NCBI GenBank assembly: GCA_001724265.1
Contig: MEDY01000002.1
Coordinates: 62,001-126,000, forward strand
Direction of reading: 5' to 3'
Length of the DNA stretch: 64,000 bases
DNA from: Rhizaria sp. SCN 62-66
Taxonomy: Eukaryota
Shown here: piece after piece, positions 5,695-47,663 of the stretch
Layout: each line of letters opens with the position of its first letter
How positions within the stretch are numbered: the first letter of the stretch is position 1
The notes under the pieces: model-generated
Seen by the model: the letters and a program-made list of their open reading frames with translations, nothing else
What the model was told of the DNA's origin: nothing
Databases searched by the model: none
Program-made: the position numbers and the translations under genes

Positions 5695-7850
5695 ATGGAT
5701 CCTGCCGCGCCGCCGCCGCCGCCGCAGCTGCACCCGCAGCCCGCCGCGGCCCGCCGTCGCGGTCTCTCCTCCTCAGACGCGTACCCACCGACGCACCACG
5801 CTGCCTCACACGGCCCCGTGGTTTCCGCGGACGATTCAGCGCTCCTGGCGGCGATGCCGGCACGCGCCCTGCTTTGGGGCCCTCCTGGGGCTCCGCTGGC
5901 GCCGCCGCCGCCGCCGCTGCCGCCGGCGGGCCCCGCTGCCGCCCCAGCCTCCGCCGCCACCACAGCCGCCGCGCCCGGCGCCCCGCAAGGCGCGTACGGC
6001 CCCCCCGCGCCTGCCGCCAACGCTGGCAGCAGCAACAACAGCGGCGGCGGCAGCAGCGGCGGTGGCGGGATCAGTCGGCCTCAGCTGTCGCCGCACTACG
6101 CCGCAGCGACTGCCACGGACTCGGCCTCGACCCCCGCCCACCCTCATAGTAGAAGCAGCATGAGCTCCAACGGTAGCGGTGGCGGCGGTGCCGGTGTCGG
6201 TACCGGTGGTGCCCACGGTCAGTACGCGCCGCTCACGGTCACGGTCACAGGTGCCGACCGGTACCACAATCACCCCAACAACAACAGCGGCAATGCCCAC
6301 GGTGGTAGCTACATGACGACTAACGGCGGCTACCAACAGCCGCAACAGCCGCAACAGCAACAGCAACAGACGCAGCATTTGTCTCCGCAGCACCACTACA
6401 ACCAGCTCCAGCAGCAGCAGCTGCTGCTGTTGGCCCGGGCGGGCAGCACCAGCAGCAGTGGCCTCAGCACGCACACCACAAATAACAACAACAACAACAA
6501 CGGCAACAACAATGGTGGTTCTAACGTCAACGCAGCAGGCGGCAGCAGCGCGAACAACCTCAGCACGAGTAGCACGAGCTACAATGCCTACGGCCCCGTC
6601 GCGGTCACTGCGAGCGCTGCCATCGGCGTCGCCCGCGGCAGCAACAGCAACAGCATCAGCAACAGCAACAGCAACTTCAACCCCAATGCCCGCTACAGTG
6701 TCGCAAACAGCACTAATAGCCGCAGCAGCACGAGCACCAAGTCGAGCATCAGCACCGCCATCGGGGGCGGCTTAACTAACAGCACGGGTGCCCTCGGAGG
6801 TGGTGGCGGCTTGACTAATGGCATGGGTGCTGCCGCTGGTGGCGTTGCGCCGCTGCCGCTGCCAATGCCGTACGTGTCGGGCATGCCTCCATCGCCCGCT
6901 CTGCCTCTGTCACACTCGCAACAACCACAGCAACAGCAACAGCAGATGCAGCAGCATGGTCATTTGCCGTTGCCTATGGGCGTTGTTAATAGTAATTTAG
7001 GATCGTTGTCACCGATTATCGACACTCGTCCTTATAATAATAACAATTACACCATGAACAATAGCAATAATACGAACAACAATATAAGGGACTTCCCGCC
7101 TCCGCCGTCACCCTTACACGGCGGGGCTAGCACACCCTTACACGTGCCTTTACACGTCCCCGGCACGCCCCTACACGGCGGCCTAAATACCCCCTTACAC
7201 GGGACGCCGTTACACGGTGCCGCCAGCAGCCCCTTACACGGAGGCCACATTGGGACCCCCTTAAACGGCACCCCCTTACCCTTGGGGGCACTTACACCCC
7301 GCACTCTTACAGCTACAAACTCGTTCACAAACAACAACATGAACAACAACATTAACAATATCACCGGCGCTGGGACCAACATGACGAGCCCTAGCTACGG
7401 TGCCGCTGCCAGTGCCAGCGCCAGCGCCAGCGCCGCCGGCGTCAGCGGTAGCGGCAGCGTTGGCCTGATCGGATTCGCTTTGGGAACCCCGCAGAGTCGG
7501 GCTCGGTCGCGCGTGCTGCCCCAACCGTACGCTCCCTACAACAGCTCTAACAACAACAATACCAATGCTAATTACAATACCAATAGCCTCGGTATGGGCA
7601 ACAGCGGCAACTACAGCAATAATCCACTCTTCGCCTTAAGCAACACCGGCAACTACGCCGATGCGAATGGGAACCAGTTCGACAACGGCGGCGCGAGCGG
7701 TATTGGCAGCCTCAACACAGTCTACAACGGCGGGGGCAGCAGCAACGACCACAGCGTCAGTGGCCGCGGCCGCGGCAGCGGCGACAGGGCCGTGCTCAAC
7801 AGCAGCGGCAATGCCAACATGAGTGCATTGTACCAACAACAACTGCAGCA

Positions 7851-7881
<31 letters not shown>

Positions 7882-8985
7882 AGGAGTGCGAGGTCGACGA
7901 GTCGACTCTCTGGCCCCGGCAGCAGCGCCGTCGGCGTGGGCTTCGACGCAGCCACTGCAGCCGGCGTCGGCGTCGGTGGCATGACTCTCAGGCCAAACCC
8001 CAACAGCAGCACCAGTCTAAACGGCAATACTGTTAACAACGGCAGACAATCCCCGTATCCGAGCGCCTCAGCCGCCCTGCTGGCCGCCATCCGGACCCCG
8101 AGCCGGTCGAGCAGCAACAACAACCGCGGCGCGAGCGGCATCGGGCTGACTGGCGGCTTGACTTTCGGCGATAGCGGCTTAAATTCCCCCGGCGACCCTT
8201 CGGGCTCACCGGTGCAGACGCGTGCGCTGCTCAACAACACTGCCTCCGCCTCTACTGCTAACAACAACAACAACAACAACGCTGCTAGTTCGAGTTACAA
8301 CAACAGCAGCAACGTTTACGGTGGCATCAGCTCAGGAGCCTCCCCTGCGTTGGCGTTGAGCACGCATATGCGGGCCGTTTCTGACTTGAATAAAGAGTTC
8401 AGGACACTCGCGCTCGCCTGGCGCCGGGCCCCCTCTCAGCCCACCACAAACGCCAACGGCAACAACAACAACAATGCTGGCAACGCCACCCCGCCGGCTC
8501 CCGGGGTGACTGTGGGCACCGCGGGTCCCGATGGTTCGAATGCAAGCCGCCCCTTGACGTCAGTGGCGGCGCAGGCAGCCGCTATTGCGAACACGCTCTT
8601 TGCTGCCCGCTTCAATTCCCAGAACAACAATGCGAACATCGTGACCCTTGTGAACGGTGTGCAAACTACGACGAACAACGGCTTCGGCATCGTCGGCATC
8701 CACCACAACTTCCCCTCCACCGGCGCTGTCGTTGGAAACGCGATCATTCCCCCTACAGCCTTTGCCGCCGCTGCCCGCGCCGCCGCCGCTGCCGCCGCCG
8801 CCACTGCCAGTAACAACAACAACGGCGGGAGTGCCCCCATGGGCGCCGGCATGGGTGCCTCAGGTGTTACCGCGACAAGGAGTGGCAGCACATTCGTAAA
8901 TCGGGCGCCGGCGAGGGCCCACAGGCGCCGCGCAATGCACGCCTTGACGCCCCTCATCGCCAGCCGCATTGCGCAACAACAACAA

Positions 8986-9016
<31 letters not shown>

Positions 9017-12000
9017 AGCAGGCCCAGGCCCAGGCTCAACAGCAGCTGCCCACTGGCACCGGCTCTGGCTCCAATTTCGGCTTCGGCAATAACAACAGTT
9101 ATAGCGCCAGCGGCAACAACAGTGGCGTCGACTCGATCCGCAGCAACGCGGCCCGCCGTAGCAACACCAGTGACATGCAGGCTCGCCGCTCCGGCCCCTT
9201 CGCTGCCAGTGCGGGCGCCGCCGGAGTCAGCCTGACCAGCATGAGCGGCAGTGTCCGCGGCAGCGGTCGCAGTGCGGGGTCCGTGGCCGCGGTCACGTCG
9301 GAGGCGTCGCCCTATGTCGGGGCCACCCCGGCCCCGTCGTTGCCGCAGTCCCTCACGAACTCGTTCGGCCACGGCCAAACCGCCGGCCCAAACGCCGGTC
9401 AGAACAGCGGTCAAAACGGCGATCTCGCGCCGCAGCTGCAGGGCAGTTCCCCAGGACGACAGGGCGGACTGGCCGGATCCAGCGGCCCCCGCAGGCGCAG
9501 GCTGAACGCGGCGAGCATGTCGTCGACCTCGAGCAACGGCACCGCGACCAGTGCTGTCTCCGGCTCCGGCTCCGGCTCAGGCTCGGGGTCTGCGTTTGGC
9601 TTTGGCTCTAACGGCAACGGCGACGGGAGTAATCTCAATAGCAACAACCGCAAAAGTGCCGGCACGTTGTCGCCCGTCCGCGTGACCAAGGGCACCGCGA
9701 ATCTAAGTGTCCGGCTCAGTACCCGCGGCGACAGCGACGACGGCGACAACGAAGCCGACTACGATAACAAGAGGGTCGCCACTCCTAACAAGAGCACGCG
9801 CGGTGACCGTGGTGTGGCCACGGGAGCCACTGGTACCCATGTGGGGTCTCCCGGCAGTGCTGACACTGGCACGGGCACTGACGGCACGCCTCGTCCCGCT
9901 ATGATCAGTCCCAAGATGAACAGCAGCAATGACTCCGACGACGACGCCGAAGGTGGTGATGCCAGAGACTGCGAGGACGACTCGCACGGCGGCCTGACTC
10001 CGTCGCACGCTCGGCTCCGTAAGAGGACGAGTCCGCCCAACAAGACTAAGAGGATTATTCCCGCAACAGCAGCGGGCAAGAACAGCAGCAACACGACGTT
10101 TTCTGCGGTAGCGAGCGGCGTTTCAGACTCTGAGAATGAGATGACTCTGAGCAACTCGACCACAAAGCACCGCCATCGCCGGAACAACACCGACTCCGTT
10201 GCTCTGAATGACATGCTAGAAGAGGGTGGGGAGGAAGGCGACCAGCATAACAACCAGCACAATGCCCACGGCCACGATCAGGAGCCGGGGGTTGACCATG
10301 GCGAGTACTTGGACGGCGACTACTACTTAGACGAGGACGAGGACGAAGACTACGGCGAGTATTACGAAGGCGACGAGGAGACCGGCCATATCTACCCCAA
10401 TAGCAACAAAAACGGGGGTCCTCTCACCGCTGAGCAGCAGCAGCAACAGCAGACTGACGCTGAGGCTGCTACTGCCGCCGCCGCTGCCGCTGACGCTCCC
10501 AATGCGACCGCTGCCACGAACGCAGCTAACGCCGGCCCCGAGCACGTCGAGAACGAGCAGGACACCGCCGCCGCGGCCGCCGCGTTACACCGCGCCCCGG
10601 CGCCCGTGCTGAAGCCGCGCGTGCCCGCCGCCGTCACGGCGATGAAGTTCCTCGACCACCCCGCGACCTTGGTCTTCTCGCTCGTCGTGACGCTGTATGT
10701 GCTGTACGTGCCGCTGATCGTTGTGCTGACCACGACGGGCTCGCTTGATGTCTATTTCTCAGCGACACAGATGTTCTGCTGGGTCTGTTTCACGGTCGAG
10801 TTCGGTCTCCGTATGGCGTACGAGCCCGGCTACCGCACTAACTGGATCCGGTGGGCCGAAATGCTCGTTCTGGTCTCCACCTTCATCGTCGACATCCCGT
10901 GGCTGTGGTCCGAACTCATGAGTAACACGTCCGCGGGCGCGATGTTCTACCTCTCCCCCGACAGCACCGTCTACGACTACCTCTGGCCCGCGTGGATGCG
11001 ACTTACATTCTTCCTCCGCCAACTCCGCCTCTTGCGCCTGCTGCGCGTCGTCGACAACGTGGCCCGGTTCGCGCGTTACTTCGAGGAGCGTTCCCGCGCC
11101 CAGAAGCGCGCCGCAGATGCGCAGCAGCGCGCCGAGCGCCGCGCCGCGTACGCGCGCTTCCTGGAGATTGTCGCCGAGTACCGCGGCCAGCTCGCCGCAC
11201 ACCGCGCCGCGACCTCGAAGCGCCACGAGGAAGCAGCGATGGCGTACAACAACGCTCTGGCGGCGGCGGTGGCCGCGGGCGGGGTCCGTAACATGGGCAA
11301 CATGAACGGCGGCGGATTTGGCTTTGGCATGGGGCCCATGGGACCGAACGGGGTTTACGGCGACAGCTCGAACGTCGGCTGGGATCCCAACGGCTTCAAC
11401 GCTGCAGCTGGAGGCGGCTTAACTTCACCCGGTGCAATGTCTGCCTACTATGGTGGTGGTTCCTTTACGTCCCCGTTCAACCCCGCAATTCATCAGCAGT
11501 TCCCGCCCTCTATGAGCAATGTCAGCGCTGCGTCCACCGCCGGTTATGGCAACGCGAACGCCTATGCGACAGGCAACCCCTTCTACGGTGTCGGCGCCGG
11601 CCCCGGCAACAACATGCTGATGCTTGACCCGCTGATGCTGCAGCAGTTGGCGCAAGTGACCGCCGACCAGTACGGCGCGAGCGCTGAAGACCAGGAGTTC
11701 GTGTCGCATATCATGGCTGGCAACTCGCAGTTGTTCGACAACGAGACTGAGCTCATCCCAACTCACGCTAACTACCAGAAGCACCTCTTCATGCTGACTC
11801 TGATCCTGCAGGCCAACGGTGCCTTTGACTCCGCCCCTGCGATGCCAGTCAACAACTACCCCCCGTACGGCAATTACAACAACTACGGGGGCCCGCAGCA
11901 GCAGCAGCAGCAGGGCCAAGGCGTTGTGTCACCCACCGACGATGTGACCGTGAGCGGACACGCCGTTGGTCCCGGCGGCAACGACAGCAACAACACTAAC

Positions 12001-15000
12001 AATGCGGTTGCTAATGTCGCCCCCGGTGCGTACGAGTACGAGTACCAGCGCAACGACGACTCCAGCTTCACCCAAACCCAGCAGCCTGGGCAGCCGGGGC
12101 AGGTGCCGCAGTTCCAGCAGCAGGGCGGTCAGAGCACGAGCAGCCAGACCGGGACGGCAAGTGGCCACTCAGTGCCGCCGACGCCCCCCATGAGAGGCAA
12201 CACCCTCGCAAACACCGCTAACATGAAAATGAACGCGAACATAAACATGATGAATAACAATGGCGGCAACAACTCGCCCTTTGTGGCCACGGTTACGGGT
12301 ACGGGTTCCAGCTCCAGCACCACAGGCACCTCTGGTACCGGTGTCGGCTTAACTGCGAACGGCAGCACCAGTGCTTTTGCCAGTGCGTTCCCTCCGAACA
12401 TGATCGGCGGGCAAGCCTCCTCTGTCCGAGGCGGCTTAATTTCTGGCGGCGGCCTAACTTCTGGCGGCGGTGTGTACACCCCTAGTCCGTCGGTATCACG
12501 TCACGCCACCGCTGTCCGCGAGCTCCATGCCGCGGGCGGCTTAACTTCGAGCAGCGCAGCCCCCATCATCATCCACACGAGTGGCCCTGCCGGCGCCACT
12601 TCCGGCACTGGCGTCAACAACACGGTGAACAACACAGTTGCGGACAGTGTCATCGAGAGCTTCACTGGCGGCCACACTGGCGTGGGTGGCAGCGGGAGCG
12701 CGCTGCACCACTCGCACTCGCAGAACCACATCGGCGCTTTGCCGTACCACCAGCAGCAGCAGCCGCGGTATTCCCTGCTCAACCACGCCGCCTCTGTCAC
12801 TCAGCAGCAGCCGCCGCTGCAGCCGACTGTCAGCATCACAGTGTATACCCCGACCAACACAAACACCGCGGCCATGCCATTGACTGCGCCCGGCATCGGG
12901 TTCCTCCCGGTCGGCACCAACAGCATCGGCAGCGGCAGCGCCGGCCTCAATACGAGTCTGAACAGCCCTAACGGCAGCAACAACAACACGCTGAACCCGC
13001 CGAGCGCTCTGCACACCGGCCGCCGCGGCGACGCCCGCGGCACTCTGGCGCGCAATGTGTTGTTCCACACAATGCGCGCTACCATGGGCGCCGGGGCTCT
13101 TGCTGCGACGCCGTCGGCGGCCGCGACCAACATCGTGACTCCGATGACCGTGAGCACCAACAGTAACTACAACACGGCGGCCAACAGCAAGGCGGGCACC
13201 AACACGAGCGGGAATAGCGGGTTTAGCTATGCGGGGCTGGCTGCCACTGCCGCGCCCGCGTCCACGGGCATAGTCACGTTCAGTGATGTGTCGGGCATGC
13301 AACAGCACCAGCAGCAGCAAATGCAGCAATTGCAGTTGGTTAATAACCAGCGTCATCCTGCGTATGACATCTGGCGGCCACCGAACCAGATGAACATGAC
13401 CAATGCTAATAATAACACTCGCAGTGCCACGGGCACGAGCAATGGGTCCACCACTGCATCTGACGCAAGCTTCGCCAACAATGGTACGAACGCGGGGATG
13501 ATGATGAACAACAACGGCGGCGCTGGCGCGTTTACCATGTCTGGGCCCGTGCCTGTGACTGTGAACATCCCGAGCACCACCGACTCATTTGCGACCTCCG
13601 GCGCCAGCGGGACTGTCAACAATGCCAACACCGGGAACAATAGTGCGACTAACAATCACGGGTTTTCCCCTAGCGGCGGCTTGCACATTGCGCAGGCCCC
13701 TGCTTCTGGCCGAGACAGCGGCTCTGTTGCCTCCACATCAGGCTCCTCACAGTCGCATTCGCAGTCGCGGACTCAGTCCCACGGACTCGGACAGGGCCAG
13801 GGACAGGGGCAGACGCTGCTGTTGCACCAAATGACCAATGTGCCTTTCATCCAGACTCACGGCCCCGGCAGCGGCGGCGGCGCCAGTGTGAGCAGCCCCA
13901 CCCTGCACAGCACTCCTGGCACTGGCAGCGGCAGTGGCAACAGCGGCGCGGACAACACCGCAGCAGCACCACAGGGACGTGACCTCGCCACGCATCTCGG
14001 CATCGCACCCGGCGCCCCGCATAGACACATGTCGTTAAAGGCCTCCCCTCCGCTGCCGCCGTACTCGCAGTTCAACAGCAGCAGCAACAGCAGCGGCCTC
14101 GACTCCGGCTCCGGCCCGCACACTCAGCTACCCTCCGGCTCCTCGCCGCTGGGGCTCGACGAGCGCGAACATGAGGACACGCTGCAGGGGCTGCCGCGTC
14201 TCATCGTGCCCCCCGCCCGGCCCATACTCGACTCGCTCTCGGCCTCCGACGCGTCCACCGGCGTGTCGAACGGCGACAACCACGGCAACAACAACAACAA
14301 CGTCAACCGTGGCGACTACGCCAACGACGTCATCACTCCGCTGCCGCTGCTGCCCAGCGCCGCCGCCGTGGCCGCCGCCGCCGGCGTTCCGCTCAGCAGC
14401 GGCGCTGCCGGTCCGGCCAGCGGCGGCCTCACCGCGGCCGACGCTGCGCTGCTGGGCAGCTACCGCTCGCGGTCGCGCACACGCGCCCACCAGCCCGTCA
14501 ATGGTACGACGACAGTGCTGCCGCAGCCGTACGCACGCAGCCCCGTGTTCGGCGGCGCAAACAGCGTCATAACCGTCGGCGGGGATCCAACCTCGCCCGC
14601 CCTCTCGTTCGCCGCCCACTCAATCGCCAACAACAACGCTAACAACAACGCGAACAATAATGCGAGTAATGCGGGCATTGTAGGTGGCATGTTTGCCCCC
14701 GGTGGCGGCGGCTTACCTTCAATGACGTTAATGGTGCCGACAGGCAGCGTCCGCAGCCGAAACAAGAACCGCAGAAACAACCACAGCACAACCCGCAGCA
14801 ACGTCAACCCGAACCCCGCGAACAACGCTAACGGTAACTTGAGTGGCGCGTTGAGCCCCAGCCACAGCGCCAGCCCAGGTCCCGGCTCCGGCCCCAGCGC
14901 CAGCCCCGGCCCCGGCTCCGGCGGGTCGATGCCCGGCACTGTCTCAGGCTCGGTGTCGAACTCAGTCGGCAACACCCCCAGTCCGGCGCCGCACTTGACC

Positions 15001-16479
15001 GCGCAGCACAGCGCCGGCGCGAACGCTGTGGCCACCCACGGCCAGATGAGCATGCAGGGCCGGCACAGCGCCCACGGTCAGGCCGGGCTTGGGCTCAGTC
15101 CCCCCGGCACCGCCGCCGGTCAAATCCCCAATCAGGCCCCCGGCCAGGCCCCCGGCCACCTGCTGACCGTGGTCAAGGCGGGCAGTGCGGGCGGCCACCG
15201 GCCGTCTCAGACCCAGCCCGGCGGCGGCTCGACGGCCGCGAACGCCGCGGGCGGGTCGCCGAGCATGCAGGCGTCGCCGGCGCCGACCGTAGTCAGCGTG
15301 AGCTCCGCCAACAGCAACCCGTCGCGCGGCAACACACCGATGCGGCGCTCCTTCGTCAAGCCCAACGACGGCGCGGCGACGGCGGCGATGGCCATGAACA
15401 TGAACGCTGCCATCGCCGCCGCGGCCGCCGCAGCCGCTGCCGCCACGCTCGGAGGTGTCGCTCCGTCAGGCTTCGCGTTCCCCCCGGCGGGCTTCCCGTC
15501 CGGCCACGGCCAACAGGGTCAGGGCCAACAGCAGCATGGGCATGGGCACGGTGGTAAATCGACTGTGGGCAGTCCCGGCCGTCACGGCCACCACCGCCGC
15601 GCGGGCAGCGTGTCTCCCATCCCAGTCAACCCGTCGTCACTGATGGCGAAGCGCACTCTCGCCGGCCGCCACCTCAACTTTAACACCAACGCGGCCGGCT
15701 CCAACCTGAGTGGGAGCGGAAACACTGTCAGCAGTCTGAGTGGGGCGACGGCCGGCGGCGGCACCCCCGTCGTCGCCCCCGGTGCCAACGGGGGCGGCGT
15801 GATGGCTCTTTCAGTCACGCCCGACTTGCAACGCCCCAACAGTCGCTTCGCATTGCACAACAACCTTGCTAACGCAAACGCGGTGCATAGCCCTGGCATG
15901 ACTGCGAGCAACTACAATAGATCAGTTTCCCCCTCGGCAGCGCTCTTCTGGGGCGCCACCAACCCCAACCCCGCGGGACGGATTGACTACAACACCCCCG
16001 CCGGCCTCAACACGTCCAACTCGCTCGCGCTGAGCAGCGCCGCTCTCGGCTCCAGCAACAGCGGCGGCGTCCCGCCCACCATCATCGGCAGCGGTTTCAC
16101 TAACACCAGCAGCAACACCGTCATCAACGGCAGCAACAGCACAACTGCTGGGATCCGGCCTCTGATGCGGATGCCGTCGCCGGTGCTTGAGGCGCACTAC
16201 CTGACCCAGTCGCAGTCGCACGCGCACGCGCAGGCGCAGCTCCAGGCTGCTAACGGCGCCCCTGGCTCCGGAACTTTTGGCGCTGCCCCGCCCGGTGTCG
16301 AGCGCCTCCCTAGCGCGTTGATGCTGTACCGCGGCTTAGCTTCCGGGTCGCCGTAGCCCCTCGTGGCTGCCAGCGCCCATGGTCAGTCCCACCACGCCCG
16401 AAGCGGCGGCACGCACACGCGCGCTGCGTCCAGCGTCACCTCAGCGATGCTCAGCCAGCTCAGTAGCATCAACAACGGC

Positions 16480-16516
<37 letters not shown>

Positions 16517-28500: not shown

Positions 28501-31107
28501 AGTGACAGCGGCAGCAGCACGCGTAGTGACAGCAGCAGCGGCAGCTCCAGAAGCGACTCAAGCAGCGCGACACTGGGGACGCGCGCACTCAACCGCAAGA
28601 CTAACGCTAAGGACAAGAAGGAGAAGATCGGCAAGCTCGTCGACCACTCGAAGCGCACACGCACCGCCCCCGTGCCCAGCTTCCTCCACCCGCACATCAT
28701 CACCGAGGAGAAGATTGACACCAGCAGCAGCCACAGCAGCAGCAGCAGCAGTTCAGCTCACCTCGAAGGCAACAACAACAACAGCAGCAGCAGCAGCAGC
28801 AGCAGTAGCAGCAGTAGCCAAAGCAGCAGCCTCATCGTCGTCGCCGCTCCCGCCGCCCCCAGCACCGGAGTCCTCGCGTCCGGCGCCGCCTTGGCCTCGG
28901 CCGCGACGGGCGCCGTCTACGCCAGCTCCGGCATCGCCGCCGGCGGGTATCCGCTGCCGACGGGGCCCGAGCTGCAGATGCATGAGCACTACTCCCGCAA
29001 CAACAGCCGCGCCACCAGCCACCGCAAGCGCAGCGGCAGCAGGCACCGCCGCCGCCGCCACCGCAACCGCCATGCGGGCGCCGGCGCCACCGGCGGCAGC
29101 AGCGGCAGCGGCGGCCACGACCACGGCCACAGCCGTCATGGGGGAAGCATCGCAGCCGTGCCGGTTCACACCGCCAGCGGCGGCGGCGGCGCTGAGACGT
29201 CGCACCTGCCGAAGCTGCCCATGGTCACGCGCGCCTCATCCACGGCGACCGCGGCGGCCGGCACGTCGCTTGTGCCCCGCGGCTCCGGTGTCTCCGGTGT
29301 CTCCCGCGGCTCCGGCAAGTCTCACTCAACGACGGTCAGCGCGGCCTTCGCCGAGGCCCGCGCCGCGCGCGCGCGCCGCCGCGGCGAAAAGGACGCGCTG
29401 CTGCTGGAGGCGCTTAACGGCACGCAGCAGTACGAGGAGTACCGCATGGAAGTTCTGCTGCATCGACTAACGCGCTTCACCAAGAACACGCGCGAGGAGC
29501 TCATGGCGACCGCGCACGAGGCCCTGGCCGCGTTCATCTACACCCAGATCGAGCTGCACACCACGCCAGGGCTGGAGCGCTGGCGCGCGCACCGCCGCCT
29601 GCGGGCCCGCAACCCTGACTGGAGCCTCGAGATGGGCTTCGGGCTGCACATCGGCTGGGCCATTGAGGGCGCAATTGGTTCTCGCAACAAGATCGATGCC
29701 AGTTATTTGAGTTCGAACGTGAACCTGGCGGCTCGCCTCGAGGGCGCGACGCAGCAGTATGGAGTGCACGTTCTCATGTCGGGCCACTTCGTCGTGCTTC
29801 TGCACCCGGACATCCGCGCGCGCTGCCGCCACCTCGACTGCGTCACCGTCAAGGGCTCCACCGTGCCGCTTGACCTCTACACGTTCGACCTCGCCGACGC
29901 CATCATTCCCAACACCAACTGGGCGGCGCTGACGAACCCGTACCGGTCGGGCGCCAACGGCGGACTGGCCGCGGCGGCCGCGGTGGGCGGCCCGGGCGAG
30001 ATGATGCAGCCGCGGCGCCCGCTGTTCCCCAACTTTCCCGGGTTCAACCGCTCTTCCCCGCTGCACCAACAGTACCAACAGGCGCTGGCGTTGCAGCAGG
30101 CGCGCCAGCAGCAGGCGCTCACTCAGCAACAGCTGTCACAGCAACAGCACCAGCCGCAGCTACAGACGCAGCAATCACAGTCTCAGCCACAACAACATCA
30201 GCAGCAGCAGCAGCAGCAGCAAGTGCAGCAATCTCACCCCGCTTCGAACGCTGCTTTCGTCGCCGAGAATGGCGCCGCTGCGAACGCGTCTGTGATGAAC
30301 GTCAACACCGCCGCCGCCGCCGCCGCGCTCGCCCGCCGTCCGCCCATGCCCGGCGCTGCGGGGTTCTTCCCCCACACAGTCACGCACGCGCACGGCACTG
30401 CCGCCGGCGCGGGCGGCTTAACTTCCGGCCAGCAGCAGCAGCAGCAGAACATGGTTATGTCTCCCGAGACTGAGTCTCTGCTGCTTGCGGCCGGCTCCGG
30501 CAGCGGCGGCACCCCCACCACGGTCGCCGCGGCGGCCGCCGCAGCCGCCGCGGTGGGCGCGGCCGCGGGCTCTGGCGCTGGCGGCGTCATTGGCGACACG
30601 CCCAGCAATGCGGCCACGGCCGGCAACGGGTTTATGTTCGGCGCAAACGGCGAGATGAACAGCCCGTTCAACCGGATCGACCTCGCCGCCGCTGCCGCCG
30701 CCGAGGCCGGCGACTCGACTAGTATGGACACGCCGCTGAACATCACCACCAACGCCGTGAACAACATCAACAACGCCGCTGCGTTCGCCAACGCCGGCGG
30801 CGCTGGCAGCGCCAGCGGCGGTTCCAACGCCACAGCGGCTGCTGCTGCGGCCGCGCTCGCGGTTGCCGCGGCCTCTGCCGGCGCTGGCGTCGGCAACAAC
30901 GCCGCGGCGTGGCTGCAGGGCAACCGCCGGCTCACGCAAGGGTTCGACCGCTTCTCCTCCTACGGCGCGCCGTCGACCGCGATCCCGCTCACCGCCGCCG
31001 CCGCTGCCGCTGCCAACGCCAACGCCAACACCAGCAACCACAGCGGCAGAGTCGGCAGCGGCAACGCGGCCGACGCCGCGTCTATCTCCGGCGCCGGCGG
31101 CATCACT

Positions 31108-31148
<41 letters not shown>

Positions 31149-32162
31149 TGGCCTGGACACGAGTCTGCTGGGGCCGCTGCCGCCGCAGTCGTGGCTGCCG
31201 ACGATGCGGGGCCGCCGCGCGTCGCTGGACAGCTCGCTGGTGCTAACGATCGCGCAGCAGCACAGCCTTAGCGGCGCGCACGGCGGCGGCGGGCCATCGA
31301 TCACGCCCAGTCTCGCCGCGATGCACCTGGGCCCCTCGCCGAACAACCAGCAGCAGCACATGCACCACACGATGCTGCAGAGCCAGCAGCTGCTGCAGGG
31401 CCAACAGGGTATGTTCGGCGTCAACGCCACTCCGGCTGCCGCCAGCACGGCGATCGTAACCTCCGGCCTGAACAACAGCACGGTCTCGCCCGGCCTCGGC
31501 AACCCCGGCACTGGCGCTGGCGCTGGCGTTGGCGTCGTGAGTGTGACCGGCGGCGGCGGCGGCTACCAGGGCCGCATGCGCCGCCGCGGTAGCCAAGCAT
31601 TCCTGACCGGCCACCTCCCCCTCAGCACCACCAACGCCAGCGCTCTGGGTGGCGGCGGCATGACGGGTGGCAGTGCCGCCGGTTTGATGGGGACGGCCAG
31701 CGTCCGCTCGTCGTCTGTGCATCCCCTCGCGGCCACTACCAGCGGCGCGCTGGTCGCCACGCCGGCGCCGGCGCAGATGGGCCAGAGCCAGGGGTCCGCT
31801 CACGGCCACGGGTATGGACACGGGCACGGCGGCCGAGGCAGTCAGAACAACACGACGTCCGACGCTGCCAGCGCGGCGAGCCTCGCTGCCGGTACCGTGA
31901 CCCCCAGCATCAACAACGCGGGATACAACCGCATGACCACGACCGGTGGCAACAGTCAGCAGCAGCAGCAGCAGATGCAACAGCAGCAGCAGATGCGGAA
32001 TGCCGGGTTCTTCAACCCGCCGTTGTCGACCCGGAGCACGCTCAGCAACGTCAACAACGTTAACGGCGGCAGCGGCAGCTTCGCCACGGGCCTCAGCGCC
32101 TTCTTCGCGCCCAACGTCAACAACAGCAACAATACCACCGCGGCAGACTCCAATGTGTACGC

Positions 32163-32234
<72 letters not shown>

Positions 32235-35200
32235 ACAGCAGCAGGGTCCCAACGGCGAGGACAGCGACGTGTCGTTCCTCGGGGCGATGGGCCCTAGAGT
32301 CGCGTACAATAACAACAACAATAACCACATTCACCGGCGCACGAGCAGCACTCAGCCGCTGCTCAACGAGAGCCTCAGCGGCAACAACCCCAACCTGCAC
32401 AATGTAAGTACCGCCAGTGCCAATGTAAGTACCCTGCCCGGACTGCTCCGCGTGCCCTCGGCGACCCCGCTGTCGCCCCGGTCCACCCTGACCAACTTCG
32501 CGGGCGTGAATGCCGCTCTGGGCGGCATGGGCATTACGCGTGCGAGCTCCGTGCGGCCGCTTGAGATCGATCCGAACGCGTTCTACGGCAACCCTAACGG
32601 GCCCGTGGCTGCCAACAACAACATCGTGACCGGCGGAATGACTGGAGGCGGCGGGAGCACGGGGCACGGCGGCCACTACGGCGCAGGCAGCACCGGTCCC
32701 GGGCAGTTCGGCGTCGTGAGCGCGATGATGAACAACAGCAACGTTGGCGGCGGAAGTAATATCAACATCAACAGCAACATGAACGCTGCGGGCTTCTTCG
32801 CGCCGCCGACCGTCGACATCACCGGCGGCGGCGGCAGCAGCGCCACTCCCGGTGTGTACTCCTTCTACGCCGCCGGCGGCAACGCGGGCAGCACGGCCGG
32901 GGTCAGCGCCACCGGGGGCGGCGAGACCCGGTCCCCGCCGGCCGCGCTGAGCATGCTGCGCGGCATGAGCATCCACCGGCCCGTGTCGTCGCTCTCGGCG
33001 CTGGCGTACAACAACCTCCTGAACAACGCCGCCGCCGCCAATGCGAACGCCGGGTCTCAGGGCGGTGTCGCGTCGCCGTCACATCAGCAACAGCAGATGC
33101 ATCTCATGTACCAGCAGCACCAAATGCAGCTGCAGCACCTCCAGCAGCAGCACCAGCACCAAATGCAGCAGCAGCAGCAACAACAGCAGCAAATGATGAT
33201 GTCCGGCGGCGTCTGCGTCTCGCCCCCGCTGCCGCACGAGTCTACCACGCCCGGGCTGCAGGCCCACTCGCACGGCGGCGCGGGCGGCAGCGACCACGGC
33301 AGCGCCGCTGGCTCCAACGTCGCCGCCGCGGCCAACAACGCAGCGCAGGCGAACGCAGTGGTCGGCGTGGGTTCGCCAGGCAGCGTCACGTCGATGCTCT
33401 CGTTGCACCAGCAGCAGCAGAGGCAGCAGCAGCAACACGGTGGCCACATGGGCTCTCCGCGCAGCACCGGCTCTGGCTTCGCTGCCGCCGTCGCTGGTCT
33501 CGCTGGCGGCGTCACCGGGCACACTCCCCCGATCGACGCGGCCCACGCTATGTCGACCAGTGTGCACGGCAGCACCGGCAGCGGCGGCGGCGTTTCCGGT
33601 CACGGCTCTTCCGGTGCGAACATGGCGGCAGCGGCCGGTTTTGCGACGCCGCGCAACGCGGGCATGATGCCCATGTTTGAGCGGACCAACTCGCAGATCC
33701 ACCTGCAGCAGCAGGCGCAGCGGCAGCTCATGCAGCAGCACCAGCAGATGCCCGGGCTGACTGGGCCCGGCTCGCTGTCCGTCGCCGCGGTCGCCGCCGC
33801 CGCCGCCACAGCCGCCGGCCTCACCCTCAACCAGGCCCCGGGCTCTGACGGAAGTAATCCTTTCACCAACGCCGGCGATACAGGCGCTGGCGCTGGTGCC
33901 GCCGGTAGCACTGGTGGGAGTAAGTCTTTCAATCTGCTCTCGCAGATGAACTGGCCCGATGTGAACCTTGCGCAACTGCAGTTTCTCGTCTCGAACGGTT
34001 TCGGCTCCGCGCCCCTCGCCTCCCTCCGCATCCCCTACACGAACCTGCCGTCGACGGTGCGCACGAGCATCAACCGCGAGCGCCGCCGCACGCGCCGGTC
34101 CACCGCCGTCGGCGCCGTCGGCTCCAGCGGCGGCAGCGTCGGCAGCAGCGACGGCATGAGCCTCAACGCCGGCGCCGGCCTGCCGTCCCCGTCGGTCGCC
34201 GCCGCAGTCGCCGCCGCCGCAGCCGCGGCTGCTGCTGGCGGGAGCGCCGCTGCTGCGGGGGCCGGTGGCAGCGCGATGGCTCGCATCCCGGCGACGTACA
34301 CACTGAGCGACGCGCTGAACGCGATGCTAGCGGCCGCGGGCAGCGAGTCCGTCTCCGCCGTCGCCGCCGCGGCCGCTGCCTCGGCTGTCATCGGCGGCGG
34401 CGGCGGCATCAGCGGCACTCCGCAGCTGTCTCAGACCCCCGGAGTTGGCGCGACTTCTAACAGCCCCGGCGTTGCTGGCGGCGCTGGCGGCAACACGGCC
34501 TCGGCCACGCCCAACTCGAGCGCAAACGCAACCGCGAACGCCGCGACGGTGGGTGCCAGCAACGGGATGACGATGCCGCTCTCGCCGCTCTCCCCGCCCG
34601 TGTCGTCCCGCGGCACGCTGCCGCCGCCGCAGTCGCTGCGCGCAGGCAGCAACACCAGCAGCAGCGGCGCCAACAGCGCCGGCGCCGGCGCCGGCGGCCA
34701 CCACCACCTCCACGGCGACCCCCAGGGCGGCAGTAGAGGCAGCGGCGGCAGCAGCGGCGGCAACGTCTTTTTCAACGTCAACACCTCCCCCATGAACACC
34801 AGCGTGACTGGGTTCAGCCCCGCCTCAGCCGCCGCCGCTGCCGCCGCCGCCGCGGCCGCGAGCGTGCTGGCCAGCGGCGGCTCCGCCACCCCGGGCCCCG
34901 GATACAGCCACGGGTCGCTGCGATCGCCGCACCATGGCCACGGCCACGCGCACGGACAGCTGCTCCAGCAAAGCGGCCAGTTCGCCGGCGGTAACATGGC
35001 TCAGCTGCAGCACCCGTTCACGCCCTCCAATGCGCACAACAACACCACTGGGAGCAGCGACCCCGCGCTTACCCCCGCGCACACGCCGGCCTCGCATGCC
35101 GGCAGCGCCGCGGGCGGCGTCGGCGGGATGACCAGCGCCGGCGGCGCGGGGATGCCGCTGTTCCAGCGTACCCCCTCGATCACGCGGGGCGGGTCCTCAG

Positions 35201-38200
35201 GCCGTCTGGGCCCGCATGGCCACAGCCAGTCGTCGGCGGCGCTCCGCAGCAGCAGCACGGGCCGCACCGCGTCGCTGCTCTCGCCGCTGCACAACAACAG
35301 CGGCTACGGCGGTGGCCTGGGCAGCGGCAGCAACGCCAACACGATGTTCACGTTCAACGGCATCCCATCCACGGTGGCGGCCAACGGCGCCAACAACGGC
35401 GGGTTCGTGAGCTACGGCCTGGGACTTTCTCTGAGTCCGTCGCAGCATCAGCAGATGATCCTGCTCCATCAACAGCACCAGCAACAACAACAGCTGCTGC
35501 TGCAGCAGCAGCAGCAGCAGCAGCAGCAGAGTGGCCCTTCGTCGGGCAGCTTGACGTCCCGCAACAGCATCCTCGGCGGCGCGCGCGGCCGCTTTATGCC
35601 CGCCACAACCCCACTGTCTGCCGCGAACCTCAACGCCAACGCCAGCGCCAGCGGCAACAGCGGCTTCGTCACGGTCATGCCCCCCACGTCGCTCACCATC
35701 ACGCTGAACAACAGCAACCACGGCAACACCAACAACAGCAGAAGCGCGTTCAGCCACGGCAACCCGAACGTGCACTCGCCCAACGGCGACACGACCACGC
35801 CGATCGCGACCCCCGTGGCCCGCAAACAGATCCAGTCGCCGCGCGCCACCGCGGCCGGCCCCGGTGCCGCGGGGGTCGCCGGTGTTGACGCCAGCGACAC
35901 TGCCACCGACGGGGTCGAGAGTCTCCTCGTCGGCGGCGGTGGCGGCGGCGGCGGCATCGGGACTCGCGCGTTCGGCTTCGCGGCGTTCGAGACTGACTCG
36001 CCGGCTATCACGGAGGTGGGCGCGACCGCGGGCGGCGCTGGGGTGCGTTCGCAGTCTGCCGCCGCGGGCTTCAACAACAACAACAACGCCAACAACACCA
36101 GCGTTAGCAGCAACAAGAACAACAACAGCAACCTGACCCCGAGCCAGGGCGTTGTTGCCGTGACCACGCTGACCCCGGGTGTCAACGCAATCGCGGTTGT
36201 GCCCATCGCGCTTAGCAGCAGCAGCAATACGACCAACCCGCAGCAGCAACAGCAGCAGCAACAGAGTCAGCAGCAAGGGCTGTCGGCGGCGGACGGTGGC
36301 CCCACCACCAGTGTGTTCGGCGCCTCCACGGCCTCGACGCCCCCGATCCAGCTGCAGCTGCCGCCGCACGCCAACGGCAACACGTCCGTGCAGCTCAGCA
36401 GCGGGGATCTAAGTGCCGCCCAGCAGCAGCAGCAGCAGCAGTCGATGAGCCCTGCGTCGCTGCTCCGGCGCTCGCTGCCGTCGCCGAGCTCAAACAAGGG
36501 CACCCGTCACCATAAACACCAGCAACAACAACAGCAGCAGCATCAGCAGCAGGGCGGTGTAGGCATGAACAGTGGCGTCGTGGCCGTCACCAACAGCTCT
36601 TTCGTCAGCAACACCGGCAGAGTCGCCGGCGCCGGCGCTGGTGCTCATGGAGTCGTCGGCGTGACCGTGTCGAGTGGCGATGAATCCAGCCCCGTCAAGC
36701 AGGCCTTCCACGCGAAGTTAAGCCGCCTCGGCGCACTGGCCCCGCTGCAGCTGCCGAGCGACCACGACTCCGCGGGACGGCTGCCGCTGGTCTCGCCGCT
36801 GTCGCCGGACGCCAAGGCGCGCGCGCCGAGCCCCAACGGCAGCGGCGATGACAGCGACAGCGGCAGCCCCACGCAGCCCCACGGCACCGTCGGCGTCCAC
36901 GGCAACGGCAACTTCGGCGTGGCGCCCGTCTACGGGATTAAGACGAGCGCCGCTGACTCCGCAGACACGATGCCCTCCGCTCGGGGCTACGGCGTGTCTG
37001 ACGGCACTGAAAGCCAGCACAGTCAGGGCCAGATGCGGCCCCGCGGCCGCGGGCAGGCGTTTAACTTCGCGCCCGATCCCAGACCGAGCAACGCCAACGG
37101 TAACGGCAACGGGAATGTCAGTACCACAAACGCGCGCACCAACGCCCGCAACAGCACCGACACCATCGCCAGCACCGTCAGCTCTGCTCACAACAACACG
37201 AACAACAACGACGCCAACGTCAACGTCAGCGCCGAAGGGCCGGCGATGAGTCCCCGCGCCTCTGACGATATGTCGCAGTACGGCGGCAGCCGCATGGCGC
37301 CCCGGCCGCGGCACAGGCGCGGCCCGTCGATCGACCTCAACCCGCGCCGCCAGTCCGTCGTCGAAACAGAGGACAGTACAAACATTGACGCGGCCGCCGC
37401 GGCCACAGCGGCTGCGGCGGTGACGGCGGCTATGCGCGCGAGCGCGAGCACAAACGCCAACCGCGGCAGCTTCAGCAGCCTCGGCGGCAACAACAACAAC
37501 AACAACAACACCGGTGCGAGCGACGTCCACAACACCAGCAGCCACCGCGACAGCGCGCGCACTGTGTCCAGCGTCATCACCACCTCGGGCACCGCCGCCG
37601 CCAGCGGGGCTGCCGCCGCCGCCGGTGGCGGGAGAGCCAGCTCCACGTCGGATTCGCACCCGTCGCGTACCTCCGCTGGCGCCAGCGCCTCGAGAGACGG
37701 CGGCGTCGCCAGAAGTGCAAACGCGGCCCTGGGCTCCAACGTCTCCGCCGCTGCCGCCGCGGCCGCTGCTGCCGCGGTGGCCGGCGCCGCCGCCGTGGTC
37801 GCCGCAGCAGCAGCCGCGACACAGGCCGGCGGCGGCTTTAGCGACGAGCTGCTGTCGTCCCTCTCCGTGCACACTACCGGCAACAACAGGGCGTCTGAGA
37901 ACGCGTCTGGCAATGGGCCGACGCCGCCGCCGCAGCTGCAGGCGCGCGCGCTCACAAAGACCCAGTCGCAGCCCCCCTTGCAGTCGCACGCGCCCTCGCA
38001 CGCGCCCTCGCACGCGCACTCGGAGGCGTTGGCACTGTCACAGACGCGGGCGCTGCCTCAGGCGCACGCCGCCGGCCGCTCTGGGGCCGTGCTAGACGCG
38101 AGCATCGGCGGCAAGATGACGGTGCTTCCACCCACCGGCCCCGCCTTCGTACCGACGGACGACCGCTACAGCGACGCCGAGGACTCGGACTCGGACTCGA

Positions 38201-39531
38201 GGCACTCCCTCAGCCGCGACAACCGCAGCCTCGGCGACGTGAACAACGCCAAGCCCGCCCCGCCACTGCCGCCGCATCTGTCTCGTGGTGCAGGCAGTGC
38301 CGGCCACGGCGGTCAGAATGGAGTCCCGACGACGACGAGAGCTAGAGCCGCCGCCACCGGAACCGCCGCCGGGGCGACTGCGGGCGCAAGCGCGGGCGCG
38401 AACGCTGCTGCTAGCGACAGGCTGAGCCGCGACTTCAAGTCCGGCGCCTTCGTCGTACCTGGCCCGACGGGCCCGAAACAGTCTGGCCTCAGCGTCGGCC
38501 ACGGCGAACTTGTGACTGACAACAGCAGCAGCCACGACAACGACGAGGAGGACAGCGTCGATGACGAGCGACGCAACAGCGACATCGCTGGCGGCGGCGA
38601 CGGCGGTGGCGGCAGCGCCGGTCTGCGCGACCGTCAGCCTGCGGCTAAGGCGGGCAAGTCTAAGGGGCTCTCCGCAATGACCGTGGGCAGCGGAGGCCGC
38701 GCGGCGTCGATGCCCGACGCGGACACGCTCGCCGCTGCCATCAACGCCGCGAACAACGGCTCCGCCAGCAATAACAGCCACAGCAACAGCGGCAACACGC
38801 TGAGCCCGAGCGCTGCTGGCAACGCTGTGCAGAGCCAAGGCATGCGTCACAGCGCCATCCACATCCCGCCCCACAGCTCGCACCCGAACGCCACCACGGT
38901 CGACGGCGGCAGCGATAGCGGGTTTGGATCCGGGTCCGGCGCCAGCACCACGGACGACGAGCACGAGCGCGAGGACAGCAAGGGCGCCGGCCATAGTAAG
39001 GCGGCGGGGAGCAAGGGCGGGAAGAGTGTTGGAACCGCTGGTGCAACTGCTGCCAGCATTGCCGCAGGCAGCACTTCTGCAAACAACACCAAACACTCTC
39101 ACACTGCGCCCTCGACTGCGGCTGCGGCTGCGGCTGGCGCCAGCGCCCAGTCCGGCCCCGGGCTGAGCGGCATCCTGAGCACGGAGCGCTTCAACGCCGA
39201 CTTCGCGTCTGCGCTGCAGCAGGTGCAGCGCGCGGATACCGCGAGTCTGGACCTTCCACTCAGCGCCGACGGCCTCAAGATCAAGACGATCGCGATGCTG
39301 CTGCCGAAGCTGCAGGCCGGCATCCCCGACGGGTTTGTCGCCACATTCAACCACGGCACGCGGCTTTACCTTGCGGGCCGCTGGCGCGCCGCGCGGCGGG
39401 TGCTACAGGACCGCTGCTTAGTCATGATGCCGGGCGACAAGCCTACGCGCGTGCTGCTCGACTATATGGCGCAGTTTGACTACAAGGCGCCCGAGGACTG
39501 GCGTGGCGTCAGGAACCTCACCAAGAAATAA
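5695..39531 (+). CDS. Giant transmembrane ion-channel-like / class III adenylyl cyclase-family protein (Paramecium AC / Plasmodium AC-alpha type), ~11,231 aa; join(5695..23717,23859..39531) with in-frame TAG at 16354-16356; probable pseudo-cyclase
   Basis: ORFs 5617..16356 and 16363..23751 are in the same frame, separated only by TAG. A phase-2 intron 23718..23858 joins them in frame to ORF 23863..39531. Family motifs occur in the expected order: S1-S4 (RLTFFLRQLRLLRLLRVV), S5/S6, QPIVQMTDFVAELARNPL, TAELEATLVQLAGLLQVGFGVAGAKII, DPMLPGRKIWGVFGFGSIRRF...NKNMGNAFLIVWKL, MGFGLHIGWAIEGAIGSRNKIDASYLSSNVNLAARLEGATQQYG...VTVKGS, and C-terminal YLAGRWRAA...DKPTRVLLDYM...APEDWRGVRNLTKK. Start chosen at GCC-ATG-G (5695); the track's 5617 start is a TTG. 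Confidence 0.8.
7108..7310 (+). repeat. Degenerate tandem repeat CCCTTACACGG encoding repeated PLH(G/V) peptides
   Basis: About 10 degenerate copies (cccttacacggc, cccttacacgtg, cctttacacgtc, cccctacacggc, cccttacacggg, ccgttacacggt, cccttacacgga, cccttaaacggc...), nearly all using the otherwise rare TTA Leu codon. Confidence 0.85.
10642..11070 (+). other. Voltage-sensor-like S1-S4 domain of the giant cyclase
   Basis: Hydrophobic helices, S2 motif FTVEFGLR, and S4 with Arg at every third residue (LRQLRLLRLLRVV). Confidence 0.8.
16354..16356 (+). other. In-frame TAG inside the cyclase gene (candidate recoded codon)
   Basis: TCG CCG TAG CCC CTC GTG: frame, GC content and codon style continue unchanged, with no AT-rich spacer or intron. 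S1-S4 lies upstream, S5/S6 and the cyclase downstream. Confidence 0.8.
18190..19095 (+). other. S5/S6 helices, GFG motif and N-terminal half of the class III cyclase domain
   Basis: GVRIGLELGLQTSLRLILAMVILILLLGLLLP; EIVGLLIITTAAIVLGALGG; QVGFGVAG (GFG at 18835-18843); FGFGSIRRF; NKNMGNAFLIVWKL. Confidence 0.85.
20740..20930 (+). repeat. Mixed-charge RD/RE/H repeat (CGTGAC/CGCGAC units), with a related copy at ~24290-24440
   Basis: RDTRDTCDTRDRERDRDREHRHHRDTRDSRDTRDTRDREYRHRER. The second block RSDRDRDRERSDREHHRSDRERDRDRDREH shares the DNA word GTGACCGTGAG and is followed by a KKDKKDKRDKKEKK tract at ~24607-24685. Confidence 0.75.
22738..22830 (+). repeat. Three tandem 30-bp units encoding ASFG(S/A)(S/P)SAGG
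   Basis: GCGAGCTTTGGC(T/G)CC(T/C)CCAGCGCCGGGGGC x3, near-perfect. Confidence 0.9.
23718..23858 (+). other. Spliceosomal intron (141 nt, phase 2) in the cyclase gene
   Basis: GTACGC...AT-rich...GCTAAT branch-like site, polypyrimidine tract, TTCTGCAG. Splicing gives AG|T CGC ATG (S-R-M), in frame with ORF 23863. Confidence 0.9.
29503..29892 (+). other. C-terminal half of the class III cyclase domain
   Basis: AHEALAAF...MGFGLHIGWAIEGAIGSRNKIDASYLSSNVNLAARLEGATQQYGVHVLMS...LDCVTVKGSTVPLDLYTFDL. Confidence 0.9.
32164..32244 (+). repeat. (CAG)20 perfect microsatellite within a Q27 tract
   Basis: 20 uninterrupted CAG at 32164-32223, followed by CAA CAG CAG CAA CAG CAG CAG. Confidence 0.95.
39301..39531 (+). 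other. C-terminal TPR-like tail typical of this cyclase family
   Basis: LQAGIPDGFVATFNHGTRLYLAGRWRAARRVL...PGDKPTRVLLDYMAQFDYKAPEDWRGVRNLTKK-stop. Confidence 0.75.
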
Positions 39532-46100: not shown

Positions 46101-47631
46101 CGAGATGAGGACCGTGGCCGCCACCTGCGCCGCAACAGAGGGGCTCAACACGAGTGGCATTGCAGCTGCTAAGCATCCTGTGTGCACATGCTCAGTGCGC
46201 GGTTTCTCCCCGCATCACCAAGGCCCTTACACCGGTAACCCGCAAGGTACTTACGCAGGCGGCGCTGTCCCCGGCAGCGGTCGCTTTGGCCACGCCGGCT
46301 CCGGTCTTGTTCCCCCTTACATCTCGATGAGCTCGCGGCCGACGACCCCCCTACATTCCGCCCGTCTCCAGCTGCAGTCGAGTCTGCACCATCCCAGTGC
46401 AGTGGGCGCCGGCGGCGGCAGCGCGTCCGCTCAGATGCAGTCGTCGCGACTGCATCCCAGCATCCTCGCTGCGCACACCCGCCAGAGCTACAGCCACAAC
46501 GCTAGCTGGGGCAACGGCAACAGCAACTTAGTCTCTGGTGCGTCGTTTGCGCACTCTAGCACTGCATGCGTGAACAACAGTACTGCTGATGCGCCAGTGC
46601 ACGGCTCGAATGACTTTGATAACAGCTCCGCCGCCGCCACCGCAACTGCCGGCACTGCTAACACTGGGTTTTCCTCGGCATCGAACTTCAACAACACCAA
46701 CAACAGTTCTTTCTACGGCTATGGCAACACCAGTCTCAACAACGCGAATACTGGTGGGCACGCGTACGGCCCCAACACTAGCTTTGCGAGCCAAAACTTC
46801 CGCAACAGCGGCGCCAGCGCTTCAGCCGCAGCCGCCGCGGCCGCAGTCAGTTCCGCTGCCCTGGACGCCAAGCGCATGCGGACACTGGCGATCCTGGAGC
46901 GGGCCTCGCGCCGCGCCGCCGCTGCCGCCTCCGCTGGCACCAACACGCACGCGAGCGCTAACAGTGAAGCTGACGCTCCTCGTGGCAGCGTGGCGAGCAT
47001 GGGCTCTGCGACGGGCGCTTCAGGTATGCGTTTGCGGCAAGCAAGGGTTTCTCAGCTCACCAAAACGCCCAGCGTCGGTCCGTCGACTACGACTGCTCAC
47101 GGTCACGCCCACGGTCACTCTGCTAGAGAGAGCCCTGGGTCTGCGGCCCACAGTCGATTGCCGCGAGCCCACAGTCACTTCGGCTCCGTGATCGAAGAGA
47201 ACTCTGATCTCACGACGAGCAGCAGCAACGCGAGCGGCAACAACAGCGGCAACAGCGGCGCCGGCGCCAGCAGCGGCGCGACGATGACGACGTCAGCTAG
47301 AGGCCCTTTGACTGGCGGCAAGCCGGGTCTCGTGCGGGGCGTTACTCTGAACAGGCCCGGGAGCGTGATCGCCGGCGGCCGCACTCTCAGCGAACATGTA
47401 CCCGTCGCCGATGAAGCTGCCGTCACGAACGCAGATCAGCGCACTGAGAATGGCGAGACCCGGCTCACCGTCACTGAAGACCCCGATAACAACGACACGG
47501 TCAGCGGTGAGGGCGACGCTGCGGCGACACTGGACAACAACATGACGTTTGTGGGCGACACCGCCCGCGATTGCACCAGCGACGTGAATGCTGCGTACAC
47601 CAACGCCGACACTGAAGCTGACGGTGCCTCC

Positions 47632-47663
<32 letters not shown>

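Follow-up and report, generated by a model that had tools for sequence, protein, structure and literature searches.

The question raised by positions 5695 to 39531 (forward strand) of a 64,000-nucleotide (nt) stretch of Rhizaria sp. SCN 62-66 DNA (contig MEDY01000002.1, positions 62,001 to 126,000; the whole stretch is called the window here) was whether these 34 kb form one gene, encoding a giant protein in which short segments of a membrane channel-cyclase family are separated by very long sequences of biased composition. The initial annotation had proposed a two-exon gene of about 34 kb, 5695..39531, for a channel-cyclase of about 11,200 amino acids. Taken as a whole, the analysis makes it probable that the locus, which belongs to a GC-rich protist detected in data from activated sludge, is a real two-exon gene for an 11,231-amino-acid member of the adenylyl cyclase alpha (AC-alpha) family, with translated inserts, a product that is non-catalytic on its own, and low-complexity growth that extends to the whole genome.

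Between position 5596 and the TAA at 39529, only three stop codons interrupted frame +1: a TAG at 16354 and two TAAs at 23749 and 23842. Both TAAs were located inside a 141-nt GT..AG segment (23718..23858) with 33% GC, a 5' splice site reading GTACGC and a 3' end formed by a pyrimidine tract and CAG; GC over the gene was 59-73%. The GTACG start was common to the four introns readable in the window (this one and three in the neighbouring OLA1 gene), and since 141 is a multiple of three, the reading frame is kept. Exon 1 (5695..23717) begins at the first ATG (5695) and ends 2 nt into a codon, and exon 2 (23859..39531) finishes with the TAA at 39529-39531. The spliced product would comprise 11,231 codons plus the stop (a 33.7-kb coding sequence), with one internal TAG (codon 3554, 16354..16356, context G-TAG-CCC; also present in a contig of the public run X2 covering 15528-16464), and would be made up of 680 amino acids of family sequence and 10,551 of inserts. 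The extent and size of the gene were as initially annotated, as were the size and place of the single intron, although its removal is predicted from sequence and one X2 contig, considered below, keeps it. Three stop-to-stop open reading frames (ORFs) cover the gene, an annotation trap that had also been foreseen: three proteins would be called, with the cyclase domain divided between two of them.

Family sequence was located with a profile. A word-based search with the second of the four conserved islands retrieved P0001, a transcriptome protein of 935 amino acids; an HMMER scan with P0001 gave 4,320 relatives at E <=1e-3 (877 at <=1e-30), the best 150 of the 4,320 being listed, and the profile was built from 47 of the first 60 listed relatives, kept if 880-1,200 amino acids long, and run against the six-frame translation of the window. 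Four significant matches were obtained, colinear and in frame +1 only (five other rows, E 3.9-6, were noise). Island 1 (10618..11118; profile positions 46-205, E 9e-12) was a voltage-sensor-like S1-S4 module with an S1 hydropathy peak at 10660-10740 and an Arg at every third residue of S4. Island 2 (18190..19101) began with two transmembrane (TM) helices, TM5 (hydropathy peak at 18214-18303) and TM6 (peak at 18544-18642), joined by a short loop on the outer side; a linker followed, whose GFG (GXG) motif aligned with the GFG of the family, and then the first cyclase half, the profile match spanning 18673-19101 (positions 503-668, E 6e-36). Island 3 (29479..29901; positions 667-808, E 3e-43) held the remaining half of the class III cyclase domain, and island 4 (39325..39528; positions 866-934, E 2e-16) matched part of the conserved C-terminal helical tail, positions 808-866 giving no match. 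Profile positions 667 and 668 are adjacent across the third insert: a single break divides the cyclase domain, the two sides of which are 10.4 kb apart.

P0001 itself matched all four islands in the same order. Identities were 46% for island 2 and 54% for island 3 with P0087, a closer relative, and 43% for island 4 with P0001. Among PDB entries, Cav and Kv voltage sensors were matched by the family profile (E 1e-4 to 9e-3), and cyclases matched the cyclase domain, in island 3 (bPAC, E 2e-7). A PDB search with the single sequence of island 2 gave 0 matches, a Pfam scan of islands 1, 2 and 4 found no family, and PF26726, listed for P0001 and for P0272 (a longer relative described below), was not returned by Pfam scans of the window protein. 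Strong hydropathy peaks were confined to S1, TM5 and TM6, none being present in the inserts. The four islands and the approximately 700 amino acids of family sequence first annotated agreed well with these matches and with the TM5/TM6 stretch from 18190, and the location of all four pieces in one frame and in the order of single compact proteins supports a single gene.

The non-family share of the predicted protein was 93.9%, distributed among an N-terminal extension (insert 1, 5695..10617, 1,641 amino acids, rich in A, G, S and N), an insert in the cytoplasmic S4-S5 linker (insert 2, 11119..18189, 2,357 amino acids), an insert between strand beta3 and helix alpha3 of the cyclase domain, which holds the intron (insert 3, 19102..29478, 3,412 amino acids), and an insert between the cyclase domain and the C-terminal tail (insert 4, 29902..39324, 3,141 amino acids), close to the 1,650, 2,370, 3,420 and 3,130 amino acids initially annotated. 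Stops in frames 1/2/3 were 0/42/62 in insert 1, 1/74/66 in insert 2, 0/22/37 and 0/27/50 in the two pieces of insert 3, and 0/70/46 in insert 4, with GC at third codon positions (GC3) of 0.75, 0.79, 0.87, 0.85 and 0.85, respectively. Over the five pieces (10,550 codons) this amounts to 1 stop in frame 1 against 235 in frame 2 and 261 in frame 3, and the openness of frame 1 is far beyond chance. The single stop, the TAG at 16354-16356 in insert 2, had been missed by the initial annotation, which described every insert as stop-free.

Other properties of the inserts were also those of coding sequence. GC3 was 0.83 in the inserts and 0.84 in the islands, and the relative synonymous codon usage of the inserts correlated with that of the islands (r 0.91) and of OLA1 (r 0.83), the off-frame control giving 0.52. 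Tandem arrays were few (9 in the gene, all small) and their periods were multiples of 3 in 9 of 9 cases; AT-rich stretches within the gene were Asn runs and the one intron only. The encoded sequence was rich overall in A, S, G, N, T, P and Q: 69% of insert residues were A/G/S/P/Q/N/T and 17% order-promoting, versus 38% and 42% in the islands. Crude entropy masks classified 77-83% of the protein as low-complexity (5-25% in 40 compact relatives), so the figure of more than 90% first annotated stands for non-family sequence but not for low complexity as such. Pfam scans of four long insert-bearing pieces found no insert domain, only a weak cyclase match. The inserts therefore appear, from their sequence, to be coding, and translated rather than spliced out. 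Inteins were discarded as an explanation on junction reading alone: the inserts are of low complexity, and a Cys/Ser ... His-Asn pattern was not seen at their junctions. Insert 3 also contains charged sub-regions (24250-24700, forward strand) with His/Arg/Asp/Glu dipeptide repeats (27- and 48-nt periods) and a Lys/Asp/Glu-rich 9-nt repeat, resembling RD/RE- and K-rich nuclear-type motifs.

Matches in public sequencing runs were obtained for part of the gene and lend modest support to translation of the inserts. Run X1, a poly(A) metatranscriptome of activated sludge, contained 26% of the words sampled from 16001-26000. Of the 8 X1 pieces listed, 7 lay in inserts 2 and 3, with 0-1 mismatches, and the eighth (18013-18307) spanned the boundary between insert 2 and island 2. 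Among the contigs listed for X2, a run that may itself be the source data, 0-1 mismatches were found at many places; next to none of the stretch was present in a third run, X3. Depth bins were set aside, several organisms being mixed in them. The listed matching contigs were short (up to 972 nt). Apparent joints in the run matches were considered as splicing and discarded, their sides being 20-23 letters long and located at repeats. A metagenome scan with island 3 gave two short distant loci (39-40% identity) and no close relative.

Assignment to the Paramecium/Plasmodium AC-alpha channel-cyclase family was supported by sequence comparison. In the ESM Atlas, P0001 and P0087 sit beside clusters named “Adenylyl cyclase alpha, putative”, with Ion_trans, Guanylate_cyc and PF26726, from Apicomplexa, Ciliophora and Oomycota. 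Passages of PMC3283738 and PMC2279260, which cite Weber 2004 and Schultz 1992, describe the AC-alpha proteins of Paramecium, Tetrahymena and Plasmodium as putative fusions of a K+ channel with a cyclase, TM6 being followed by a GXG motif; according to these passages, K+ conductance was demonstrated once only, for Paramecium. The length of the relatives had a median of 943 and a maximum of 1,360 amino acids (151 sequences; 385-1,360 for the best 150 of 4,320), in keeping with the value of about 1,000 initially given for characterised members, and the predicted expansion would be about twelve-fold, against the tenfold first proposed. Inserts of at least 20 amino acids occurred in the 151 compact relatives at position 202 (13 relatives, maximum 80 amino acids), position 673 (11, maximum 382) and position 818 (4, maximum 41): the insert sites of the window gene are insert hot spots of the family, at which compact relatives carry far shorter inserts. 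In the AlphaFold model of P0001 (mean predicted local distance difference test score 78.3), the first three insert sites corresponded to low-confidence residues (1-33, 191-222 and 657-670) and the fourth began in coil after residue 806; the cyclase part of the model matched solved class III cyclases with template modelling scores of 0.7-0.79 (normalised to target).

A search limited to proteins of 2,872-9,141 amino acids gave one match, P0272, an uninterrupted call of 3,650 amino acids on a 15.9-kb contig, with 48% identity in the second cyclase half. The family profile matched P0272 colinearly and revealed inserts at the same four sites (1,175 amino acids at position 667/671), with a further insert in the first cyclase half; P0272 and the window protein aligned in the three best islands only. 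A FastTree phylogeny built on the second cyclase half, with 145 rows and 138 columns, placed P0272 and the window protein as sisters (support 0.955), the pair nesting among compact relatives. As far as these predicted proteins go, the giant form is shown to be common to at least two divergent organisms.

Class III cyclases carry two metal-binding Asp residues, a substrate-binding Lys and Ser/Thr/Asp, and a transition-state Asn and Arg. These six positions, mapped via the alignment of the family to bPAC, read S-K-N-S-N-R in the window protein: the Lys and Ser of the substrate site are kept, as are the two transition-state residues, Asn and Arg, and both metal-binding Asp are replaced. The combination D-K-D-S-N-R was found in 21 of the 151 relatives, many others being degenerate. 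The window protein was closest to the canonical group, and its ungapped alignment with the canonical P0087 gave the changes D to S and D to N. In P0272, read by eye, the second metal Asp and the Lys were also lost. The loss of both metal-binding Asp makes “cyclase” doubtful as an activity. The residues present indicate that the window protein would not bind the catalytic metals and is probably not a self-sufficient cyclase. Within the AC-alpha family, the loss suggests either a partner subunit or a pseudo-cyclase; the original label of channel-cyclase holds for family membership.

The protein would join a voltage-sensor/K+-channel-like membrane module to one class III cyclase domain followed by a helical tail, and would carry four cytoplasmic biased inserts (94% of its length): one N-terminal, one in the S4-S5 linker, one in a mid-cyclase loop and one preceding the C-terminal tail. 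Since the inserts are in loops and linkers, the folded parts could still assemble; the scaffold role and the phase separation initially proposed are hypothetical. The cyclase domain, alone or as a homodimer, should not make cyclic AMP; it may act as a partner lending its half-site to a canonical paralogue, or the protein may be a voltage-sensing pseudo-enzyme. The inserts themselves most likely represent a genome-wide process, the runaway expansion of low-complexity coding sequence in loops under little constraint, because neighbouring genes show the same kind of insert. The in-frame TAG would be read through, or be a sequence error.

This TAG was not isolated. A second in-frame TAG, at 48340-48342, was present in the neighbouring phosphatase gene (described below), also as G-TAG-CCC, a heptamer with 3 occurrences in 48 kb (CCC codon frequency, 2.5%), giving 2 in-frame TAGs in about 19,500 codons. 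The sharing of this rare context suggests a common cause rather than two independent accidents. All six ORF ends read (4851, 39529, 53797 and 58476 on the forward strand; 59843 and 55088 on the reverse) were TAA followed by a purine (A or G), though GC3 was 0.8-0.9, and TAA may be the main or only terminator. No in-frame TGA was found in the long ORFs of the window, which contained neither tRNA genes nor Rfam matches. Short introns around either TAG were discarded by reading, there being no frame-preserving GT..AG beside 48340 that would spare conserved residues. The TAGs may have originated from read-through or reassignment, from a motif-specific sequence error, or as two recent nonsense alleles; the rarity of UAG and its single context are better fitted by context-dependent read-through or motif-specific error than by a reassigned code. 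Two TAGs in one context, together with the six TAA terminators, raise the question of how stops are decoded in this organism.

Several observations weigh against a translated two-exon giant gene. The TAG at codon 3554, if read as a stop, ends the protein after the voltage-sensor module. Profile positions 205-503, corresponding to the conserved TM5-TM6 loop domain (at about 230-500, with conserved Cys), had no significant match in the window, where the TM5-TM6 spacing is only about 80 amino acids, and the match of PF00211 to the second cyclase half (21.8 bits, E 1.6e-4) was just under the cut-off of 21.9. The intron was retained in one X2 contig, and neither a spliced read confirming it nor a read or contig spanning the whole gene was seen among the X1 and X2 matches. 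The case for translation is built on DNA and on RNA-library contigs, and the X1 matches may stem from DNA carried over into the RNA library. Finally, the loss of both metal-binding Asp together with a stop codon would also be expected of a decaying gene copy.

This last possibility is the alternative that fares best, though it is unlikely: translation would stop at codon 3554, yielding a long N-terminal protein with the voltage-sensor module only, and the downstream 23 kb would be a remnant disabled recently and left untranslated, whether as a pseudogene or as a null allele. The presence of TAG 16354 in an X2 contig as well, the replaced Asp residues and the unrecognisable loop domain are all compatible with it. 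However, the 23 kb past the TAG are open, with GC3 of 0.85-0.87 and no frameshift, which leaves room only for very recent decay; a like TAG lies inside the C2 domain of the neighbouring gene, in the same rare heptamer; and P0272 is an intact call of 3,650 amino acids despite having lost its second metal Asp (by eye).

Removal of the inserts by unconventional splicing, which would leave a mature protein of about 700-1,000 amino acids, would match the compact size of the relatives and the failure to see a full-length transcript in public runs, but is very improbable. Introns feel no pressure to stay open or to maintain codon bias, whereas the inserts hold 1 in-frame stop in 10,550 codons and have exon-like codon usage; the four readable introns of the window are short and AT-rich and start with GTACG, the inserts having 60-73% GC; contigs from a poly(A) library lie inside the inserts, one of them crossing an insert/island boundary; and P0272 keeps open inserts at the same sites. 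An assembly artefact, in which low-complexity repeats joined unrelated pieces, is scarcely credible in spite of the metagenomic source, the short matching public contigs and the many false joints at repeats, since chance joins would not leave four islands correctly ordered on a single strand and in a single frame, there are only 9 small tandem arrays in 34 kb, and the X2 contigs listed differ from the window by 0-1 mismatches at many places.

Several genes surrounding the giant AC-alpha-like gene showed the same kind of expansion. Downstream, a gene resembling those of voltage-sensor phosphatases (about 40345-53799, forward strand; about 4,480 codons) had an S1-S4-like start, a PTEN-type phosphatase motif and, about 2,300 amino acids past the phosphatase part in the same frame, a PTEN C2 match (29.8 bits, cut-off 27.1) ending at profile position 98 of 133, exactly at the in-frame TAG 48340; a PDB search of the phosphatase stretch across this TAG gave a chance match only (E 0.38). 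Two ORFs cut by the window ends were rich in A/S/T/Q/G runs: 3-4853 (forward), with low-complexity runs and a long poly-Q region, and 59841-63998 (reverse), low-complexity with repeated Cys/His blocks and a weak YL1 match (E 0.0035) below the cut-off. The OLA1/YchF GTPase gene (about 55089-56819, reverse; four exons and three AT-rich introns starting GTACGT) was without low-complexity inserts; the best public matches to its last exon had 75-68% identity, fungi and animals about 50%. An ORF at 57369-58478 (forward) encoded a TLC (TRAM/LAG1/CLN8) domain (E 9e-9, 36 bits, cut-off 24.6). Since neighbours carry the same kind of insert, the expansion looks genome-wide, a trait of the genome and not a special adaptation of this gene.

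The protein is an extreme case within a known family, and its novelty lies in its size, in the division of the catalytic domain and in the loss of the metal ligands. Should it be made at full length, it would be an extreme natural test of how much disorder a membrane signalling protein can bear, including a loop of 3,412 residues within a catalytic fold, and the neighbouring genes and the 3,650-amino-acid relative, which share the trait, show that the whole lineage tolerates such growth. It is conceivable, but rather doubtful, that this is an unusual, unsampled protist lineage combining about ten-fold translated, disordered inflation with decoding or read-through of G-UAG-CCC and a UAA terminator, in which the AC-alpha protein is produced at full length and serves as a non-catalytic voltage-sensing partner of a canonical cyclase or as its tether.

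With regard to stop codons, the excerpts considered of PMC5304391 describe, for the rhizarian exLh and for Iotanema spirale, nuclear codes in which UAG is a sense codon and UAA the terminator, and such codes also appear in excerpts of PMC11687900 and PMC10553269. The window resembles exLh and Iotanema spirale, as portrayed in those excerpts of PMC5304391, in having in-frame UAGs in intact genes, with UAA as terminator in 6 of 6 cases here, but differs from the 1.6-5 UAGs per gene given there, with 2 in about 19,500 codons and a single heptamer context.

With the AC-alpha proteins of Paramecium, Tetrahymena and Plasmodium, the window protein shares the S1-S4 module, two further TM helices, the GXG that follows TM6, one class III cyclase domain and, over profile positions 866-934, a match to part of the conserved helical C-terminus, its islands being colinear with compact members. 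It differs in being about 12 times longer (11,231 versus a median of 943 amino acids), in a cyclase domain split by 3,412 amino acids, in the replacement of both metal-binding Asp and in a TM5-TM6 loop domain that is not recognisable. The similarity to P0272 extends to the insert sites, including the one in mid-domain, the degenerate catalytic site and a C-terminal tail ending in KK. P0272, however, has a third of the length, a mid-domain insert of 1,175 versus 3,412 amino acids, A/S/P/L/Q-rich inserts that cannot be aligned with those of the window, and no internal stop.

The half-site pattern of the window protein's cyclase domain recurs in the C2 half of mammalian membrane adenylyl cyclases, in which the metal-binding Asp are absent and the substrate Lys is present together with the transition-state pair, Asn and Arg. 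The mammalian enzymes have C1 and C2 on one chain, whereas the window protein has one domain, and its C1-like partner would have to be another protein.

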